From positions 1-5,742 of the IMG/VR virus record IMGVR_UViG_2671180294_000016: 5,742 nucleotides of DNA, one strand, 5' to 3'. Both the position numbers and the translations under genes were made by a program. Positions 1-5,742 of the stretch are shown here, piece after piece. Source of the stretch: a virus. Taxonomy: Duplodnaviria > Heunggongvirae > Uroviricota > Caudoviricetes. Below the pieces are notes generated by a model. That model was not told the DNA's origin. It worked only from the letters and a program-made list of their open reading frames with translations, and did not search any database. Positions within the stretch are counted from its first letter, which is position 1; each line of letters starts with the position of its first letter.

Positions 1-1392
1 ATGGACTTACCTTCTTTACCTTCTCTTTCTTCACTCTTTTCTGCATCTTCAGGTATCAATTGGCGCGATAATCTTTACGACGCTTCATTTCGTGGCGTTC
101 CGTTTTCGGTGGAGAGCGACGAGGGTTCGTTCGGACGCCGCGTTCAGGTCCATGAATACCCAAACCGTGACAAACCGTACACGGAAGATCTCGGGCGTGC
201 CACGCGACGGCTGACGATTAATGCGTATCTCGTTGGTGATGATTACGCAGAGCAGCGCGACAGGCTGATTACAGCGATTGAAACCGCCGGGCCGGGGACG
301 CTGATCCATCCGCAGTTCGGTGAAATGCAGGGCTGTATTGACGGGCAGGTGACCGTTTCTCACTCCGGCACTGAAGGCCGTATGTGCCGGGTTTCATTTC
401 AGTTTGTTGAGAGCGGGGAACTGTCATTTCCGGTCGCCGGAGCTGCAACCGCCAGAAAACTGGAGGAGTCGTCCGTATTCCTGGATGAGTTGATTGAAGA
501 CATGTTCGGCGATTTTGATCTCGCGGGAATACCGGACTTTATTCAGAACGATGTTATTGCCCGGACGACCGATATGCTGGGAACCGTTCAGACAGCTTTC
601 AAAATGGTTAATTCGGCTGTTTCTGCCGGAGCGAGACTACTGCAGGGCGATTTATCCGTCATTCTGATGCCGCCGTCGGTTGCCAGTGATTTTGTGCATA
701 CGTTGCAGGATACCTGGCGGGCCGGAACCCGGCTGGTGGATAACACACAGGATCTGGTGCAGTCCATAACGACAATGTCCGGCATTACGCTGGACCCAGG
801 ACTGGCACCGCGTGCGGTGTGGCCCACAGATTCCGCATCGGTTATCAGGCAAAAACAGCAGACAAACCTTGTGGCTGCTGTCATCCGGACGACGGCAATC
901 AGCGAAGCCACAAGGGCGGTCACTTCACTGCCACAACCCGGAAGCCTGGTGAAAAATCAGCAGGCGGTTGTGGCTGTTGGTGGTTCCACTGAACGTCAGT
1001 CCGATATTATTCACGTTTCTCATCCGGCACTTGACAGCGTGGCAGCCAGCACAGGACAGGATGAGAGAGCGCAACCACCCACGCGGGAAAATCTCACCAT
1101 CATACGCGAATCGCTGAACGCGGCGATTGAACAGGAGCTCAGGCGTACGGCGGATGACAGGCTGTTTTTTCAGCTGACGTCATTACGTACAGAACTGAAC
1201 CGGGATATTCAGGCGCGTCTGGTTCAGACGGAGGAAACCGCAGAGCGAACGCCAGCGGAAGTTCTGCCTGCGCTTGTTCTGGCTGCGTCATGGTACGACG
1301 ATGCGTCCCGTGAAACTGATATCCTGGATCGAAATGCCATCTCTCATCCGGGCTTTGTTCCGGTCAGGGCATTAAGGGTACCCGTCAGATGA
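1..1392 (+). CDS. Phage tail protein, Mu gpN-like DNA circulation protein (contractile-tail/baseplate module)
   Basis: 463-aa ORF starting at ATG at position 1 with TGA at 1390-1392. Residues ~20-110 (WRDNLYDASFRGVPF...HEYPNRDKPYTEDLGR...AYLVGDDYAEQRD...GPGTLIHPQFG) match my recollection of the conserved N-terminal domain of Mu N-type proteins. Stop overlaps the next start in an ATGA motif. The first ~20 codons are CT-rich and low-complexity, so the true start is uncertain and the gene could be 5'-partial. Confidence 0.75.
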   Translation: MDLPSLPSLSSLFSASSGINWRDNLYDASFRGVPFSVESDEGSFGRRVQVHEYPNRDKPYTEDLGRATRRLTINAYLVGDDYAEQRDRLITAIETAGPGTLIHPQFGEMQGCIDGQVTVSHSGTEGRMCRVSFQFVESGELSFPVAGAATARKLEESSVFLDELIEDMFGDFDLAGIPDFIQNDVIARTTDMLGTVQTAFKMVNSAVSAGARLLQGDLSVILMPPSVASDFVHTLQDTWRAGTRLVDNTQDLVQSITTMSGITLDPGLAPRAVWPTDSASVIRQKQQTNLVAAVIRTTAISEATRAVTSLPQPGSLVKNQQAVVAVGGSTERQSDIIHVSHPALDSVAASTGQDERAQPPTRENLTIIRESLNAAIEQELRRTADDRLFFQLTSLRTELNRDIQARLVQTEETAERTPAEVLPALVLAASWYDDASRETDILDRNAISHPGFVPVRALRVPVR

Positions 1393-2465
1393 ATGATACC
1401 GTTTTACTTCGGGTTTCCGGTCGCGAATGGGGCGGCTGGACATCCGTCCGTATCAGTGCGGGCATTAACCGTATTGCCCGGGATTTTAATGTTGCCATTA
1501 CCACCCGCTGGCCCGGAAGCCGGGATTATCAACCCCGGATAAAAAATGGTGAGCTGGTTGAAGTGCTTATCGGGGATGAGCCTGTGCTCACCGGATATGT
1601 GGAGGCACTACCGCTTCGTTATGACGCCAGCAGCGTCAGCATGGGAATTGTCGGGCGAAGCAAAACAGCCGATCTGGTTGACTGCTCTGCTTTGCCACTC
1701 CAGCAGAGCGGAAAAAACCTGCTCAGAATAGTCAGTGAACTGGCTGCGCCATTTGGCATCACCGTTGTTGATGCTGGCGTGCCGCAGACAGCGGTGATTG
1801 ATGCCCAGCCGGAACACGGCGAAACCGTTGCCGATTGTCTTAACCGGTTACTGGGGCAGGTTCAGACGCTGGCTTATGACGATGAATGCGGGCGACTGGT
1901 TCTGGGAAAACCCGGAACAGGTAAAGCGGCGACGGCGCTGGTGCTGGGAGAGAATATTCTTTCCTGTGACACGGAAAGAAGCATCAGAGAGCGGTTTTCT
2001 GAATATCAGGTCAGTGGGCAGCGCCCGGGCAACGACGATGATTTTGGTGAGGCCACCATTGCCGCAATACGTCAGACCATTCAGGACAGTGGCGTGACCC
2101 GTTATCGCCCTTTGTTGATTCAGCAGTCAGGCACAGCAACGACAGCAACCTGTAAGGCCCGTTGTGAATTTGAAGCGCGCCAACGGGCTGCGCTTACCCG
2201 TGAGACAACATATACGGTTCAGGGCTGGCGGCAGGGCAGTGGCGCGTTATGGCGTCCGGGGTTATCTGTCATCGTTTTCGACCCGCTGAATAATTTTGAT
2301 AATGATGAACTGGTGATCGCAGAAGTTACCTATAACCAGGACGACCGGGGCACGACGACTGAATTACGGGTTGGCCCGGCAGATGCTTATCTCCCCGAGC
2401 CTGTTACCGCCAGGAAGAAAAAAATGTTGAGGAGGATTTCTGATGAACGGGTTTTCTCTTCGTAA
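1389..2465 (+). CDS. Phage tail/baseplate hub protein, Mu gpP-like (late control D family)
   Basis: 358-aa ORF; ATG at 1389 overlaps the upstream stop by 4 bp (translational coupling). Its position between the N-like and V-like genes and its size fit the Mu-type baseplate order N-P-Q(gp45)-gp46-gp47. Family assignment is by position and general similarity, not by a run alignment. Confidence 0.7.
   Translation: MNDTVLLRVSGREWGGWTSVRISAGINRIARDFNVAITTRWPGSRDYQPRIKNGELVEVLIGDEPVLTGYVEALPLRYDASSVSMGIVGRSKTADLVDCSALPLQQSGKNLLRIVSELAAPFGITVVDAGVPQTAVIDAQPEHGETVADCLNRLLGQVQTLAYDDECGRLVLGKPGTGKAATALVLGENILSCDTERSIRERFSEYQVSGQRPGNDDDFGEATIAAIRQTIQDSGVTRYRPLLIQQSGTATTATCKARCEFEARQRAALTRETTYTVQGWRQGSGALWRPGLSVIVFDPLNNFDNDELVIAEVTYNQDDRGTTTELRVGPADAYLPEPVTARKKKMLRRISDERVFSS
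2429..2435 (+). promoter_or_regulatory. Shine-Dalgarno sequence (GAGGAGG) for the gp45-like gene
   Basis: GAGGAGG lies 7 nt upstream of the ATG at 2443, inside the 3' end of the preceding ORF. This supports 2443 as the real start and an internal re-initiation site. Confidence 0.6.
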
Positions 2466-2976
2466 TCTGATTTCCCGGGCTGTCATCACGGCGGTGGATT
2501 CCGCCAGAAAGTGTCAGTCTGTAGGGTTGAAAATGATAGCCGGAGATCAGAAACAACACGTTGAGCACCTTGAACCTTATGGTTTTACATCTGCCGCACA
2601 GAACGGTGCTGAGGGCGTTGCTTTATTTCCGGCGGGCGATCGTTCTCATGGTGTGGTTGTGGTCGTGGCTGACAGACGTTACCGGCTGAAAGGACTGAAA
2701 CGTGGGGAAGTGGCGCTTTATGACGATCTGGGACAGTCCGTTGTCCTGACCCGTTCCGGTATTGTGGTGGACGGGGCCGGGAAGGCCATAATTTTTAAAA
2801 ACGCGCCTAAAGCGCGCTTTGAAATGCCAGTCGAATCCACCGCCGATATTACTGACAATTGCGACAGTGGCGGACTCAGCATGCAGCAAATGCGGCAGGC
2901 CTACAATGCCCACAAACATACCGAAAATGGTGATGGTGGCGGGATCACTGACACGCCGGATCAACCGATGGGCTGA
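2443..2976 (+). CDS. Baseplate assembly protein V-like / Mu gp45-like baseplate spike
   Basis: 177-aa ORF with a strong SD and a 23-bp overlap with the upstream gene. Motifs EPYGFTSAAQNGAEGVALFPAGDRSHGVVVVVADRRYR...GEVALYD resemble the gpV/gp45 spike family as I recall it. Confidence 0.75.
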   Translation: MNGFSLRNLISRAVITAVDSARKCQSVGLKMIAGDQKQHVEHLEPYGFTSAAQNGAEGVALFPAGDRSHGVVVVVADRRYRLKGLKRGEVALYDDLGQSVVLTRSGIVVDGAGKAIIFKNAPKARFEMPVESTADITDNCDSGGLSMQQMRQAYNAHKHTENGDGGGITDTPDQPMG

Positions 2977-2981
2977 AAATC

Positions 2982-3392
2982 ATGATGATTAATGTTAACG
3001 GGCGACCCGTGTCGACCGGGGCTTCGATCGACCTTCTGACGCGTGCTGTGATTATTTCGCTTTTTACATGGCGGCGTGCCGGGCGTGATGATGCACCACG
3101 GATATTTGGATGGTGGGGGGATACCTGGCCTGCGGTTCAGAATGATCGCACGGGGTCGCGTTTGTATCTGTTGCGACGCAGCAAGCTGACAAATAAAACC
3201 CCGCAGCTTGCCAGAGATTATGTCCGTGAGGCGCTGGCGTGGATGGTGGAGGATGGTGTTGCTTCCCGTCTTGATATTAACGCTGTCCGGACCGGGACAG
3301 ACTCGCTGGCACTTGCCATTACCATTTACCAGCGTGACGGCAATATTCACAACATTATTTTTGATGATATCTGGAGTGAACTGAATGGCTGA
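2982..3392 (+). CDS. Mu gp46-family baseplate protein
   Basis: 136-aa ORF starting at ATG 2982 (or 2985), 5 bp after the upstream stop. Its size and position between the V-like and J-like genes fit the GP46 family. The SD is weak. Confidence 0.65.
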   Translation: MMINVNGRPVSTGASIDLLTRAVIISLFTWRRAGRDDAPRIFGWWGDTWPAVQNDRTGSRLYLLRRSKLTNKTPQLARDYVREALAWMVEDGVASRLDINAVRTGTDSLALAITIYQRDGNIHNIIFDDIWSELNG

Positions 3393-3978
3393 CAGTCAGT
3401 TTTATCGCCCCGGCCTCCCGCAACTTATTTCTATGATCCGGAGCGATTTATTAACCCGCTTTGAGCAGGATACGCTGCTTCGTCGTATGGATGCGGAAGT
3501 GTATGCCCGTGTACAGGCTGCAGCCGTACACACGTTGTACGGGTATATCGATTATCTTGCCAGAAATCTGTTACCGGACGTGTGTGATGAAGACTGGCTG
3601 TACCGGCACGCCAGAATCAAACGCTGCCCGCGAAAAGAAGCGGTGGCAGCCCGGGGATTTGTGCGCTGGGATGGCGTAGAGGGGACGCCGGTATTGCCAG
3701 CGGGAACGCAGATCCAGCGTGATAATCAGGTGACCTTTACCACGACGGCGACGGTGACCGCAGCCGATGGTCTTCTCCGGGTGCCTGTTGTGGCAGACGA
3801 ACCGGGATCGGCGGGGAATACGGATGATGGTATTGCCATGCAACTGGGAACACCCGTCAGTGGTCTGCCGTCCACAGGGTACGCTGACACCATTACAGAC
3901 GGTGAAGATATTGAAAATCTGGAAATATGGCGTGCCCGCGTTATGGAACGTTATTACTACATTCCACAGGGGGGCGCA
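3385..3978 (+). pseudogene. Baseplate J-like (Mu gp47-like) gene, 3'-truncated by IS1 insertion
   Basis: ATG at 3385 overlaps the upstream stop by 8 bp, with GGAGTG 6 nt upstream. The N-terminal motif RRMDAEVYARVQAAAVHTLYGYIDYLARNLLPD is typical of baseplate J-like proteins. Native coding stops at 3978, about 198 codons, against roughly 350 expected. The 224-aa ORF in the track (to 4059) gets its last ~27 residues from read-through into IS1. Confidence 0.75.
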
Positions 3979-4324
3979 GGTAATGACTCCAACTTATTGA
4001 TAGTGTTTTATGTTCAGATAATGCCCGATGACTTTGTCATGCAGCTCCACCGATTTTGAGAACGACAGCGACTTCCGTCCCAGCCGTGCCAGGTGCTGCC
4101 TCAGATTCAGGTTATGCCGCTCAATTCGCTGCGTATATCGCTTGCTGATTACGTGCAGCTTTCCCTTCAGGCGGGATTCATACAGCGGCCAGCCATCCGT
4201 CATCCATATCACCACGTCAAAGGGTGACAGCAGGCTCATAAGACGCCCCAGCGTCGCCATAGTGCGTTCACCGAATACGTGCGCAACAACCGTCTTCCGG
4301 AGACTGTCATACGCGTAAAACAGC
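3979..4324 (-). mobile_element. IS1 insertion sequence, partial (terminal inverted repeat through ~346 bp, then gap)
   Basis: 3979-4001 GGTAATGACTCCAACTTATTGAT is the IS1 terminal inverted repeat. The following sequence matches the IS1 interior as I recall it and encodes the InsB C-terminus on the minus strand. The element continues into the N-run, so its other end is not visible. Confidence 0.95.
3994..4324 (-). CDS. insB: IS1 transposase InsB, C-terminal fragment (5' part lost in gap)
   Basis: Minus-strand translation ...[109 protein letters not shown] matches the InsB C-terminus; stop is the reverse complement of 3994-3996. The 133-aa ORF in the track (3994..4395) is a chimera spanning the N-gap. 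Confidence 0.9.
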
Positions 4325-4335
4325 NNNNNNNNNNN
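4325..4335. other. Assembly gap (11 N) joining IS1 interior to integrase interior
   Basis: A literal run of 11 n. The left flank is internal IS1 sequence and the right flank is mid-gene integrase sequence, so an unknown amount of DNA is missing. Confidence 0.98.
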
Positions 4336-4336
4336 G

Positions 4337-5008
4337 AAAAACACAATGGCAGGATCAATGCGTTCTGTGTTGTCTGATATGTTTCGCGAGGCCATTGTTG
4401 AAGGACGTATATCTCAAAATCCAGTCACGCCAACAAGAGCACCGAAAATAGTAGTTACAAGAGAACGACTGAAACTAAAGATATACAACTGCATCAGGGA
4501 GGCAGCAGATCAACTTCCGGCATGGTTCCCATTAGCTATGGATTTAGCCCTTGTAACAGGACAACGTCGCGAAGACATAACGAATATGCGGTTCAGTGAT
4601 ATTTATGATGATCGTCTCCACGTCAGGCAAATTAAGACAGGAATGATGATTGCTATCCCCCTGTCACTCAGCCTTCCTGTCGCTGGTCTACGGCTTGGTA
4701 CAGTAGTTGAACGATGCCGCCTGGTAAGCCGGGGAGATTATCTAATCAGTGCCGGGATTAGAAAAAACAGCCCTGACGGCAGCATTCACCCGGATGGCCT
4801 GACAAAAAAATTTGTCGCAGCCAGAAAATTCACAGGTATCCAGTTCAGTGAAAACCCACCAACTTTTCACGAGATCAGAAGCCTGGCTGGACGATTGTAC
4901 AAAGAAACATGTGGAGAAGAATTTGCTCAGCGTCTACTTGGCCACACATCGGAGAAGACAACAAAAATGTATCTTGATGAGAGAGAAAAAACGTACTTAC
5001 TGCTCTGA
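4337..5008 (+). CDS. int: Tyrosine recombinase, lambda Int family, 5'-truncated at the gap (C-terminal catalytic domain)
   Basis: Frame is open from the first base after the gap. The translation aligns from memory with lambda Int from about residue 160 to the C-terminus ([16 protein letters not shown] / AIP / [14 protein letters not shown] / [13 protein letters not shown]). The catalytic positions R, K, H-x-x-R, H and Y are all present. TGA stop at 5006-5008. The ATG at 4346 is probably not the real start. Confidence 0.9.
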
Positions 5009-5084
5009 TTTTAACGTAAATGGATTGTTAAATGTATTTTGGTTGTGATATAACCAAAAAGACCGGAATACAGAAATTCGAGTA

Positions 5085-5104
5085 AATTTCGGGGAATTTC
5101 GGGG
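5085..5104 (+). repeat. Perfect tandem direct repeat AATTTCGGGG x2 between int and the sRNA 3' end
   Basis: 5085-5094 and 5095-5104 are identical decamers. The position between the int stop and the presumptive att core makes them candidate arm-type recombinase binding sites, which is inference only. Confidence 0.45.
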
Positions 5105-5114
5105 GAGACATTTG

Positions 5115-5127
5115 CAACTAATTGATT
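5115..5127 (-). promoter_or_regulatory. IHF consensus-like site (WATCAANNNNTTR) in the att-proximal spacer
   Basis: The reverse complement of 5115-5127 is AATCAATTAGTTG, matching WATCAANNNNTTR. It sits in AT-rich DNA between int and the SdsR 3' end. A chance match is plausible. Confidence 0.3.
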
Positions 5128-5139
5128 TCAAATGCAATT

Positions 5140-5174
5140 AAAAAAAGACCGAATACGATTCCTGTATTCGGTCC
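5140..5174 (-). terminator. Intrinsic terminator of SdsR (hairpin GACCGAATAC...GTATTCGGTC plus U-run)
   Basis: A 10-bp perfect stem at 5148-5157 / 5165-5174 with a 7-nt loop, followed on the minus strand by 7 T (plus-strand A-run 5140-5146). Confidence 0.8.
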
Positions 5175-5242
5175 AGGGAAATGGCTCTTGGGAGAGAGCC
5201 GTGCGCTAAAAGTTGGCATTAATGCAGGCTTAGTTGCCTTGC
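5140..5242 (-). ncRNA. sdsR: Small RNA SdsR (RyeB)
   Basis: The minus strand reads GCAAGGCAACTAAGCCTGCATTAATGCCAACTTTTAGCGCACGGCTCTCTCCCAAGAGCCATTTCCCTGGACCGAATACAGGAATCGTATTCGGTC followed by a T-run. This matches the enterobacterial SdsR/RyeB sequence as I recall it, including the terminal hairpin. Exact ends are approximate. Confidence 0.85.
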
Positions 5243-5248
5243 CCTTTA

Positions 5249-5255
5249 AGAATAG
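5249..5255 (-). promoter_or_regulatory. Candidate sigma-S-type -10 element (C-TATTCT) for sdsR
   Basis: On the minus strand, CTATTCT ends 6 nt upstream of the presumed SdsR 5' end (G at 5242), with C at -13. This fits the sigma-S extended -10 pattern and the known RpoS dependence of SdsR. No clear -35 was examined. Confidence 0.45.
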
Positions 5256-5329
5256 ATGACGACGCCAGGTTTTCCAGTTTGCGTGCAAAATGGTCAATAA
5301 AAAGCGCGGTGGTCATCAGCTTAAATGTT

Positions 5330-5371
5330 AAAAACCGCCCGTTCTGGTGAAAGAACTGAGGCGGTTTTTTT
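5330..5371. terminator. Bidirectional intrinsic terminator between ryeA/sdsR and yebY
   Basis: A GC-rich stem (CCGCC..GTTC / GAAC..GGCGG) at about 5335-5364 is flanked by A5 upstream and T7 downstream, so it can terminate on both strands. It lies 30 bp past the yebY stop on the minus strand. Confidence 0.8.
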
Positions 5372-5400
5372 ATTGGAAATCAAAAGGCTATTTTAGGTAA

Positions 5401-5742
5401 TTAACAGAGTTTTTCAGCTCGTTCTATAAACGGTGCCAGACTCATTTTTTCGCCGGGATTGTTAGGATCATCAATCTGAATCACCGAAATGGGTTGGGCA
5501 TTGGTCTTCCCACTGGCAACTTCCTTTTGTGCGATATCGTTTAAAGGATACTGCACGAGGGTACTCGGATTAATAACATACAAAGCATTACCCGGTCGGC
5601 AAGTCAGCATCACCTCTTCGCGATTAAACGCCCATTTGTCTTTACCCACTTCAAAACGACTGACGGTAATCACCTGCGGTGCAGCCAGCGCCGCTGCAGA
5701 ACTGGTGAGTAACAGAAACGCCAGAATACTTTTTTTCATCAT
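5401..5742 (-). CDS. yebY: YebY, DUF2511-family secreted/periplasmic protein
   Basis: 113-aa minus-strand [27 protein letters not shown]..., with a typical Sec signal peptide and an A-x-A cleavage motif. It matches E. coli YebY as I recall it, the gene that flanks ryeA/sdsR in K-12. The start codon is at the window edge and the RBS lies outside the window. Confidence 0.85.

Follow-up and report, generated by a model that had tools for sequence, protein, structure and literature searches.

The tail genes considered here are closely related to those of phiP27 (NC_003356 / AJ298298), an Stx2e-converting phage. phiP27 and its relatives are temperate myoviruses that combine lambdoid regulation, a cos site and an HK97-type head with a Mu-type tail, and the SfI/SfII/SfIV/SfV phage group has been described as phiP27-related (PMC3851460). 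The phiP27 genome carries int, xis and a cos site, and no transposase or MuA/MuB is annotated in it. Its integrase, a 437-aa protein with an Arm-DNA-bind_2 domain, is encoded at the opposite end of the prophage from the tail block and on the opposite strand.

A second kind of system is represented by the lambdoid, Rac-like prophages found at ryeA/ryeB (sdsR), such as PhiW104 of Salmonella. In these prophages int is terminal and faces an attachment core located in the final bases of sdsR/ryeB. The placement of the attachment site in the last 23 bp of ryeB was published by Balbontin et al. (2008), as relayed in PMC7380047.

In this study, we analysed a stretch of viral-catalogue DNA of 5,742 nucleotides (referred to throughout as the window) in which baseplate genes resembling those of phiP27 are followed by an integrase gene resembling those of the ryeA/ryeB prophages. 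We suggest, with a probability of roughly 0.8, that the window consists of parts of two independent decayed prophages of Shigella sonnei together with chromosomal DNA, rather than of one element, and that a run of 11 N in its interior is most likely a scaffold or assembly join.

Results

The first 3978 nucleotides of the window are 96.7% identical in DNA to phiP27 over their full length, and the five proteins encoded there (Table 1) are 96-99% identical in amino acid sequence to those of phiP27 L48-L52, in the same order. Individually, the gp43-type protein shares 95.9% identity with phiP27 gp48, the hub 99.4% with gp49 across 345 aa, the spike 96% with gp50, the wedge protein 95.6% with gp51, and the baseplate J fragment 98.5% with residues 1-198 of gp52. 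The same five families occur in the same order, on one strand, as gp43-gp47 of Mu, at only 26-39% amino acid identity (BLASTP E 6e-13 to 6e-49; 37% for gp43 across the N-terminal domain and 39% for gp46). The hub aligns end to end with Mu gp44 (PDB 1WRU, E 8e-46) and also matches MuSo2 (3CDD, E 1e-46), and the spike aligns end to end with Mu gp45 (9KI1 chain V, E 2.6e-14). The five co-directional open reading frames match the tail families named in the original prediction. Also borne out was its view that the tail came from a temperate, integrase-using myovirus and not from a transposable phage, given that phiP27 has int, xis and cos. Neither a MuA-type DDE transposase nor MuB is encoded in the window, as judged from its open reading frames and a Pfam profile search, and the phage type from which the tail derives differs from Mu in relying on an integrase and an excisionase.

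Table 1. Annotated features of the window, with coordinates, strand and the evidence for each.
Feature	Coordinates	Strand	Evidence
DNA-circularisation / Mu gp43-type tail protein, 463 aa, phiP27 L48 orthologue	1..1392	+	Pfam DNA_circ_N 3e-36
Baseplate hub, Mu gp44/P type, 358 aa	1389..2465	+	Pfam GpP-like_1st, Gp44-like_2nd, GpP_4th (4e-22, 2e-21, 4e-19)
Central spike / baseplate assembly protein V, Mu gp45 type, 177 aa	2443..2976	+	Pfam Phage_Mu_Gp45 2e-26
Baseplate wedge protein, Mu gp46 type, 136 aa	2982..3392	+	Pfam GP46 4.5e-33
Baseplate J / Mu gp47 type, N-terminal 198 of 360 codons only	3385..3978	+	Pfam Baseplate_J 1.2e-24
IS1 target sequence GGGGGCGCA, left copy of 9-bp target-site duplication	3970..3978		same 9 bp recur directly after 768-bp IS1 in 53G (L007)
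IS1 fragment, right inverted-repeat end and last 346 bp, InsB C-terminus	3979..4324	-	Pfam DDE_Tnp_IS1 3.9e-61
Run of 11 N, sole point where the two halves meet	4325..4335		sequence inspection
3' fragment of lambda-Int-family integrase, ~codons 136-358 of 358	4336..5008	+	PF00589 1.9e-16
Prophage end between int and attachment core (P'-arm equivalent), 33% GC	5009..5138		homology to unoccupied E. coli locus begins only at 5139
RyeA (SraC) sRNA gene	5136..5280	+	Rfam RF00101 179 bits (gathering 37), full length
Prophage/chromosome junction: attachment core overlapping SdsR terminator hairpin	5139..5173		alignment to empty site in L016
SdsR (RyeB), antisense to RyeA	5140-5239	-	Rfam RF00111 118 bits (gathering 38), full length
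yebY, chromosomal, 113 aa	5401..5742	-	Pfam DUF2511/YebY 2e-45

The baseplate module in the window is neither complete nor uninterrupted. The 3' end of the hub gene is frameshifted by an A-run that is one nucleotide shorter (A7 at ~2418-2424) than the A8 of phiP27 and E. coli, and the J gene is cut by IS1, leaving a fragment that covers positions 2-137 of the 255 in the Baseplate_J profile. The open reading frame at 3385-4059 is therefore a chimera of 224 aa, in which J codons 1-198 read through into IS1. Beyond these two lesions, the window differs from phiP27 in having five genes only; stx, the head and lysis genes and the phiP27 int are all absent.

The IS1 right end (GGTAATGACTCC...) begins directly at the break in J, and the fragment comprises 346 of the 768 bp of IS1, with the canonical right-end sequence and the InsB C-terminus, before it is ended by the N run. 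Copies of IS1 at S. sonnei loci and in E. coli O121 match this fragment with 100% identity. Window positions 1-4324 as a whole are 100% identical to S. sonnei 53G (HE616528.1), where the element at this site is a complete, simple insertion of 768 bp with a 9-bp target duplication, and the C-terminal 162 codons of J follow it. Removing IS1 and one 9-bp copy in silico from the 53G sequence restores a 360-aa J open reading frame. Downstream of IS1, 53G continues with the rest of J and the tail fibres, and then ssrA/smpB; the sheath, tube and tape-measure genes, which lie outside the window and whose presence upstream had been proposed as a check, are found upstream in the same genome.

The exact 224-aa J::IS1 chimera recurs in 226 index blocks. 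Wherever we read a closed chromosome or a long contig (53G, Ss046 CP000038, CP044151, CP110404 and others), it is followed by the complete 768-bp IS1 with its 9-bp duplication, the J C-terminus, gp48 and the tail fibres. The tail fibres are followed by tmRNA and smpB in most of these sequences, and by another integrase-bearing element, not tmRNA/smpB, in CP044151 (L009). The phiP27-like remnant of S. sonnei lies at ssrA, extends from the sheath gene through the tail fibres and carries two IS1 insertions. Short S. sonnei draft contigs with the J chimera stop inside IS1 (L037, L038).

The integrase fragment on the other side of the N run aligns to lambda Int residues 142-348 (PDB 1Z1B, E 2.9e-49), and its full-length relative aligns to lambda Int over all three domains (E 6.5e-73). 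The catalytic residues R212, K235, H308, R311, H333 and Y342 are all conserved and the GQR, KTG, HEIRS, GH and MY positions are kept, in agreement with the earlier assignment to the lambda family of tyrosine integrases. An ATG-initiated open reading frame within the fragment (4346-5008) encodes 220 aa, and the exact protein carries the database name 'phage integrase [Shigella sonnei]'. Because ~135 N-terminal codons are absent, the fragment lacks its arm-binding domain and the larger part of its core-binding domain; Arm-DNA-bind_1 and Phage_int_M are present in the 358-aa relatives only. The best local match between this protein and the phiP27 integrase is 24% identity over 86 aa (E 0.003), and the two are essentially unrelated.

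Window positions 4336-5742 are 100% identical to S. sonnei contigs (L014 and L015). In S. sonnei contigs, the sequence upstream of the position equivalent to 4336 consists of int codons 36-134, preceded by the end of an IS630; IS630 divides int at codon 36 in this species, and IS1 borders the gene. In scaffold L014, the IS1 just upstream of int has the opposite orientation, and a simple collapse of two copies does not give the observed order. Draft contigs begin at many scattered points inside int (positions 76 to 293 for L015), a pattern into which a contig starting at position 409 would fit. In assembly GCA_000815925.1, J::IS1 lies mid-contig in its normal context on AMKL01000062 (680,639 nt), and the int fragment lies at the end of AMKL01000046 (233,991 nt).

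In E. coli, relatives of this gene (98-99.8% nucleotide identity) lie together with xis at the terminus of lambdoid prophages inserted at yebY, and 228 complete E. coli genomes have a window-type int adjoining yebY. The prophage of this kind in E. coli 2013C-3342 encodes a siphovirus tail of the lambda type (gpJ, the major tail subunit and G/T-type tail assembly genes) on the strand opposite to int and at least 36 kb from it. The window int belongs to such lambdoid siphovirus prophages, which have Rac-like early genes and are integrated at sdsR/ryeA. In E. coli O121, a window-type int has received an IS1 of its own, in an independent event whose 9-bp overlap corresponds to window positions 4973-4981.

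The prophage end beyond int contains tandem AATTTCGGGG repeats at 5085-5104, which may be arm-type Int sites, and a partial core-like copy at 5056-5077. The attachment core differs from the empty-site allele by two substitutions (5145 and 5154), and the arms of the SdsR terminator hairpin are at 5147-5156 and 5164-5173. The boundary at 5139 coincides with the 3' end of SdsR and the int stop codon is at 5008, so int occupies the end of the prophage that borders the attachment site, as in PhiW104. The window differs from the ryeA/ryeB prophages in retaining only the truncated int, without xis or other prophage genes. In E. coli genomes, the gene annotated yebY is followed by copD, yobA and holE.

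The break in identity between these two S. sonnei contexts falls exactly at the N run. The continuation of IS1 (CAGCGCTGGCG CGATTT...) and the sequence upstream of the int fragment (...GATTGAAGGAGG) are each absent from the other side of the run. Given that 11 N is too short to accommodate the missing 422 bp of IS1, the gap size is either nominal or mis-estimated. We read 26 contigs bearing J and 24 bearing int and searched 5,426 complete E. coli genomes and IMG/VR without finding a contiguous example of the tail-IS1-int junction, and in none of those genomes does a single place cover 80% or more of the window. In the best 30 of 10,099 records with a match, the tail match ends at 3979.

Discussion

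The left part of the window (1-4324) is a block of baseplate genes from a temperate myovirus remnant of the phiP27 type, located at the ssrA (tmRNA) locus. IS1 transposed into baseplate J and left the 9-bp target duplication, an insertion that rendered the tail module dead. The right part (4336-5138) is the last remnant of a lambdoid prophage with a Rac-like early region and a siphovirus tail, which entered the 3' end of sdsR/ryeB, beside yebY, through site-specific recombination of the lambda-Int type. What is still visible of it is the 3' two-thirds of int, together with the arm of the attachment site that adjoins it. The fragment retains its catalytic residues, but without its arm-binding domain, and with no xis in S. 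sonnei, it cannot mediate excision. The N run is best explained as a gap joining a contig that ended inside the IS1 repeat to a contig that started inside int; given that S. sonnei draft contigs habitually end in IS1 and in int, we infer that it is an assembly join and not a real junction.

It is alternatively conceivable, though unlikely, that the junction is physically real in the source isolate and that IS-associated recombination joined the ssrA-linked phiP27-like remnant to the sdsR-linked int remnant. The route could have been an inversion or a translocation involving the IS1 in J and a second IS1 copy, or an illegitimate deletion with its endpoint inside IS1, with the N run hiding an unresolved repeat. 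Rearrangements mediated by IS elements occur often in S. sonnei, both loci are surrounded by many IS1 and IS630 copies, and in scaffold L014 an IS1 lies 21 nt upstream of the int start. The independent insertion in O121 is consistent with this possibility, as is the variation in the flanks of the tail remnant among closed S. sonnei genomes (L009 and L012 versus others). The two loci, ssrA and sdsR/yebY, are ~0.8 Mb apart on the E. coli K-12 map. However, both breakpoints are internal, one to IS1 and one to int, and neither is at an IS end, which is not what IS1 transposition or homologous recombination between IS1 copies would yield. The discontinuity is also exactly the N run, with both flanks stopping where draft contigs typically stop, and the surveyed contigs, E. 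coli genomes and IMG/VR hold no contiguous copy. If real, the junction would be a record of an IS-associated chromosomal rearrangement with an unusual breakpoint, inside IS1 rather than at its end.

It is very improbable that the window derives from a single temperate myovirus with a Mu-like tail and its own lambda-type integrase, rearranged or deleted so that int adjoins the baseplate genes: phages with a Mu-like tail and a tyrosine integrase exist (phiP27 and the SfI/SfII/SfIV/SfV group, PMC3851460) and a GC break agrees with their modular make-up, but the family owning this tail block uses a different integrase, its remnant in S. sonnei is at ssrA and not at sdsR, the family owning the window int has lambda-type siphovirus tails, an IS1 fragment and the N run separate the parts, and both parent phage types encode int and their tail genes on opposite strands, so no internal deletion could make them co-directional.

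The original prediction had treated the window as one mosaic element in which tail genes and int are immediately adjacent. The intervening 346 bp of IS1 and 11 N contradict the adjacency, and the idea of a single element fails because the int is not the recombinase of the tail module and each half continues differently in contiguous, 100% identical S. sonnei sequence. It was right that the layout is not that of an intact prophage, and its appeal to rearrangement or deletion was a fair hint, although IS1, the N run and both truncations had been missed. The span that it covered, 1-5008, stops before the attachment site (~5139) and the SdsR/RyeA genes (5136-5280), which explain the location of int.

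The biological weight of the reading as two prophage remnants is small. phiP27-type tails, lambda-type Int at the ryeA/ryeB hot spot, IS1 and IS630 are all well described, and, judging by sequence, all components of the window are already known, being 100% identical to published S. sonnei sequence and members of well-described families. The lesson is methodological: in IS-rich genomes such as those of Shigella, real synteny should not be inferred from a gene neighbourhood that spans an N run or an incomplete IS.

The compositional break between the two halves had been read as a sign of modules of different origin. The break itself is real, with 54.4% GC in the tail genes (1-3978; GC3 52-55%) and 45.5% in int (4336-5008; GC3 39%; chi-square p = 2e-5). 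Of the hand counts, ~55% at 301-360 agrees with the computed 55.0%, and 38-42% at 4441-4500 is slightly above the computed 36.7%. However, such a step is normal inside a single temperate phage and is alone no proof of a chimera. It does not discriminate between the readings, given that phiP27 by itself shows a similar contrast between tail (53.9%) and int (45.2%).

The Mu-type tail genes and the integrase are two separate remnants

The juxtaposition of tail genes and integrase gene is most likely (probability about 0.8) a scaffold or assembly join at repeats. An IS1 transposed into the Baseplate J gene and left the tail block dead, and in Shigella sonnei a lambdoid prophage at sdsR was worn down to an integrase (int) stump via IS1 and IS630 events; the two unrelated remnants would then have been joined at repeats during scaffolding or assembly. 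The "mosaic element" of the original prediction is not a real unit, and every component of it is already known. What was observed there is partly confirmed and its interpretation partly supported. For instance, the tail genes and int were described as immediately adjacent, but IS1 sequence and a run of N intervene and both flanking genes are truncated (see table). There are no tRNA or tmRNA genes in the window.

Features of the window and the matches that identify them
Feature	Coordinates	Strand	Evidence or remarks
Five overlapping co-directional tail genes	1-3978	+	Pfam DNA_circ_N, GpP/gp44 hub, Phage_Mu_Gp45, GP46, Baseplate_J
IS1, 346 bp	3979-4324	- (InsB C-terminus)	Canonical right end GGTAATGACTCC; DDE_Tnp_IS1 3.9e-61
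Run of 11 N	4325-4335
Tyrosine integrase gene, 3' part	4336-5008	+
Low-GC spacer holding the antisense sRNA pair RyeA and SdsR/RyeB	5009-5400
RyeA	5136-5280	+	Full-length Rfam match, score far above gathering
SdsR/RyeB	5140-5239	-	Full-length Rfam match, score far above gathering
yebY	5401-5742	-

A phiP27-like tail block inactivated by IS1

The assignment of the five tail ORFs to Mu-type families was borne out by Pfam and by structural entries. All five proteins reproduce the Mu gp43-47 order at 26-39% identity, the hub can be aligned over its full length with the proteins in the Mu gp44 (1WRU, E 8e-46) and MuSo2 (3CDD) crystal structures, and the spike matches the gp45 chain of the Mu baseplate entry 9KI1. 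Across its whole length the block shares 96.7% identity with the Stx2e phage phiP27 (proteins 96-99% identical), a cos-packaging, integrase-using phage whose prophage map runs attL, int(-), xis(-) ... tail(+), attR. The complete gene plan is visible in a 99%-identical E. coli prophage, with lambdoid Q and RusA, holin and lysozyme, a P27-type small terminase, an HK97-type head, and a tail with sheath, tube, tape measure and Mu-type baseplate. The phiP27 genome was reportedly described by Recktenwald and Schmidt (2002). A temperate, non-transposable myovirus with a Mu-like tail is a long known type, and this description fits the tail block; it does not fit the window integrase, which belongs to another phage family. 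The SfI/SfII/SfIV/SfV group and its likeness to phiP27 have been described (PMC3851460).

Window positions 1-4324 are 100% identical to Shigella sonnei 53G (HE616528.1). Of the 360 codons of J, 198 remain; the open frame then reads through into IS1, making a 224-aa ORF (3385-4059). This exact J::IS1 chimera occurs in 226 index blocks of public assemblies, and all closed chromosomes and long contigs read (including 53G, Ss046 CP000038, CP044151 and CP110404) continue uniformly: a whole 768-bp IS1 is followed by the J C-terminus, a gp48 homologue and the genes for the tail fibres. The J::IS1 is located at about 3,027,726 in 53G and about 2,895,321 in Ss046. Next, in most of the records, are ssrA (the tmRNA gene) and smpB; the closed CP044151 is an exception, with a different integrase-bearing element 3' of the tail fibres. 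Given that in 53G a perfect 9-bp duplication (GGGGGCGCA) stands on both sides of the IS1, and that deleting the IS1 in silico gives back a J of 360 aa that is colinear with its phiP27 counterpart, the insertion is a simple transposition, and it inactivated the tail block. The sheath, tube and tape-measure genes sought upstream of the baseplate block are present in 53G, along with a chaperone gene and a second, inverted IS1; from these upstream and downstream genes, the S. sonnei element is therefore a sheath-to-fibre remnant at ssrA. The J::IS1 junction had no exact match in a scan of species-representative genome contigs, which we take to mean that no S. sonnei genome bearing it is among the representatives.

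The second IS1 of 53G (locus L007, 5476-6173) separates the tape-measure gene from the DNA-circularisation gene and is 444 bp upstream of the start of the window. Inverted IS1 copies thus bracket the 4.4-kb baseplate block, which explains why 186 index blocks have it as a contig of its own, 2-5 kb long. The hub gene has a run of seven A (2418-2424) where phiP27 and E. coli FDAARGOS_944 have eight, which alters its final codons and makes the ORF run on into the gp45 gene, to 358 aa instead of 351 aa. The shorter run is common to all S. sonnei loci compared, with annotated hub lengths of 350 to 364 aa, and looks like a further sign of decay.

An integrase stump from a lambdoid prophage at sdsR

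The prediction of a lambda-family tyrosine integrase proved correct. The fragment corresponds to residues 142-348 of lambda Int (alignment E 2.9e-49) with all six catalytic residues conserved, and a 358-aa full-length relative aligns with lambda Int across all three domains (E 6.5e-73). Missing are the first ~135 codons, that is, the arm-binding domain and most of the core-binding domain. Window positions 4336-5742 are 100% identical to S. sonnei draft contigs, and the exact 220-aa product is on record as 'phage integrase [Shigella sonnei]'. In S. sonnei contigs the sequence 5' of the equivalent of 4336 is the remaining int back to codon 36, then an IS630 end, and no IS1; in another S. sonnei scaffold the first ~25 int codons and an IS1 come next. 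In this species, then, IS1 and IS630 events left only an int stump of the lambdoid prophage at sdsR. Lambda Int needs arm binding. Because the stump is without its arm-binding domain and without xis, we infer that it would be unable to catalyse excision, although its catalytic domain is kept.

At 98-99.8% nucleotide identity, the same int adjoins yebY in 228 complete E. coli genomes, accompanied by an excisionase and Rac-like early genes (recE/recT, gam, kil, ralR). The near-intact prophage of E. coli 2013C-3342 that carries it has a lambda-type non-contractile tail (gpJ, major tail subunit, tail assembly, tape measure), on the strand opposite int and at least 36 kb distant. The integrase of phiP27 has 437 aa with an Arm-DNA-bind_2 domain and is essentially unrelated to the int in the window.

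Several further features of this int gene were seen. In intact copies a GGAGG motif with 9-nt spacing precedes the internal Met of the 220-aa ORF (398-421 in the S. sonnei contig L015; in the window, 4336-4348, it is partly under the N run), and this is probably why gene callers name the stump a 220-aa "integrase". In E. coli O121 201805972 (L003) a separate IS1A insertion lies near the int 3' end, at the equivalent of 4973-4981, its target duplication marked by a 9-bp overlap of two alignment pieces; int has thus been struck by IS1 more than once. For P0003, an int variant protein with a 3' deletion, a look-up of recorded occurrences returned none. PP818812.1, labelled as the Actinobacillus pleuropneumoniae phage vB_Apl-pPE4, carries at 46307-47104 an integrase 95.9% DNA-identical to that of E. 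coli and Shigella, which is unexpected for the stated host, and the record may be mislabelled or contaminated.

The junction

None of the contigs retrieved with the 220-aa integrase or the J chimera holds both halves, and the minus-strand ORF that spans the N run (3994-4395) had no recorded occurrence. Scans of IMG/VR found the J::IS1 junction at 2 loci and the int 5' boundary at 31, with no locus having both. No locus in 5,426 complete E. coli genomes spans 80% or more of the window, and the 30 best-ranked records all have a tail match that ends at 3979. Most tellingly, in GCA_000815925.1 the J::IS1 sequence lies mid-contig in its normal context (AMKL01000062, 680,639 nt) and the int fragment is at the extreme end of a separate contig (AMKL01000046, 233,991 nt). 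Draft contigs start at many points within int and stop about 110-125 bp into the IS1 of J, and the ends on either side of the N run therefore resemble normal contig ends.

The two halves are not one element: their attachment sites in S. sonnei differ (ssrA and sdsR), as do their parent phage families, integrases and tail types, and nothing links them but an N run with a partial IS1 beside it. In each parent family the tail genes lie on the strand opposite to int, either at the other end of the prophage or, in the circular form, convergent with it across attP, so the co-directional arrangement in the window is unreachable by internal deletion.

An alternative is that a true, isolate-specific IS-associated rearrangement made the junction. 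Its basis is that 11 N are too short for the missing 422 bp of IS1, and that the IS1 adjoining int in one S. sonnei scaffold (L014) is oppositely oriented; we nevertheless consider it unlikely, and if true it would still be a routine event for Shigella. A simple repeat collapse via that same IS1 is rejected as stated, given its opposite orientation.

The compositional break itself was confirmed, with 54.4% GC in the tail genes versus 45.5% in int (chi-square p = 2e-5); the int-to-att spacer has 33%. The original prediction saw in this modules of different origin. We considered it as a mark of a chimeric join and rejected that idea, because phiP27 alone shows the same contrast (tail genes 53.9%, int 45.2%, early region 45.1%); the step is not diagnostic.

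A genuine IS1-mediated internal prophage deletion is seen in E. coli VL7S7 (L002, 11694-14931), a model of such a layout when it is real. In this yebY-linked prophage, opposite-strand tail-fibre genes (tail fiber N-terminal domain, DUF4376, tail fibre assembly) are joined by IS1 directly to dicB and recE, next to sitABCD.

The attachment site at sdsR/ryeA

Homology of the window to unoccupied E. coli loci starts at 5139, at the SdsR 3' end and terminator hairpin. This boundary is the ryeA/ryeB hot-spot attachment site reported by Balbontin et al. 2008, as summarised in PMC7380047. In other genomes the same site is filled by different integrase types, and many IMG/VR proviruses end exactly at window position 5742. 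A yebY look-up returned E. coli-type loci only, both empty sites and other prophages, with no closed S. sonnei yebY locus among its results.

Two perfect tandem copies of AATTTCGGGG (5085-5104), with a degenerate third copy, AAATTCGAGT, ahead of them (about 5074-5084), follow the int stop and precede the attachment core, placed as are the lambda P'1-P'3 arm-type Int sites. These may be arm-type sites of this integrase family. A partial second copy of the attachment core and SdsR terminator (AAAAAGACCG..GAATACAG; 5056-5077 versus 5142-5169) lies 86 bp inside the prophage arm, and could be the scar of an earlier hot-spot integration or a candidate core-type binding site. Compared with the empty E. 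coli site, the occupied allele has two differences in the first 16 nt of homology, at 5145 and 5154, which fall in the SdsR terminator and the RyeA 5' end. Replacement of the core by sequence from the phage would be expected to leave such differences, and the 5154 variant makes the hairpin stem perfectly complementary.
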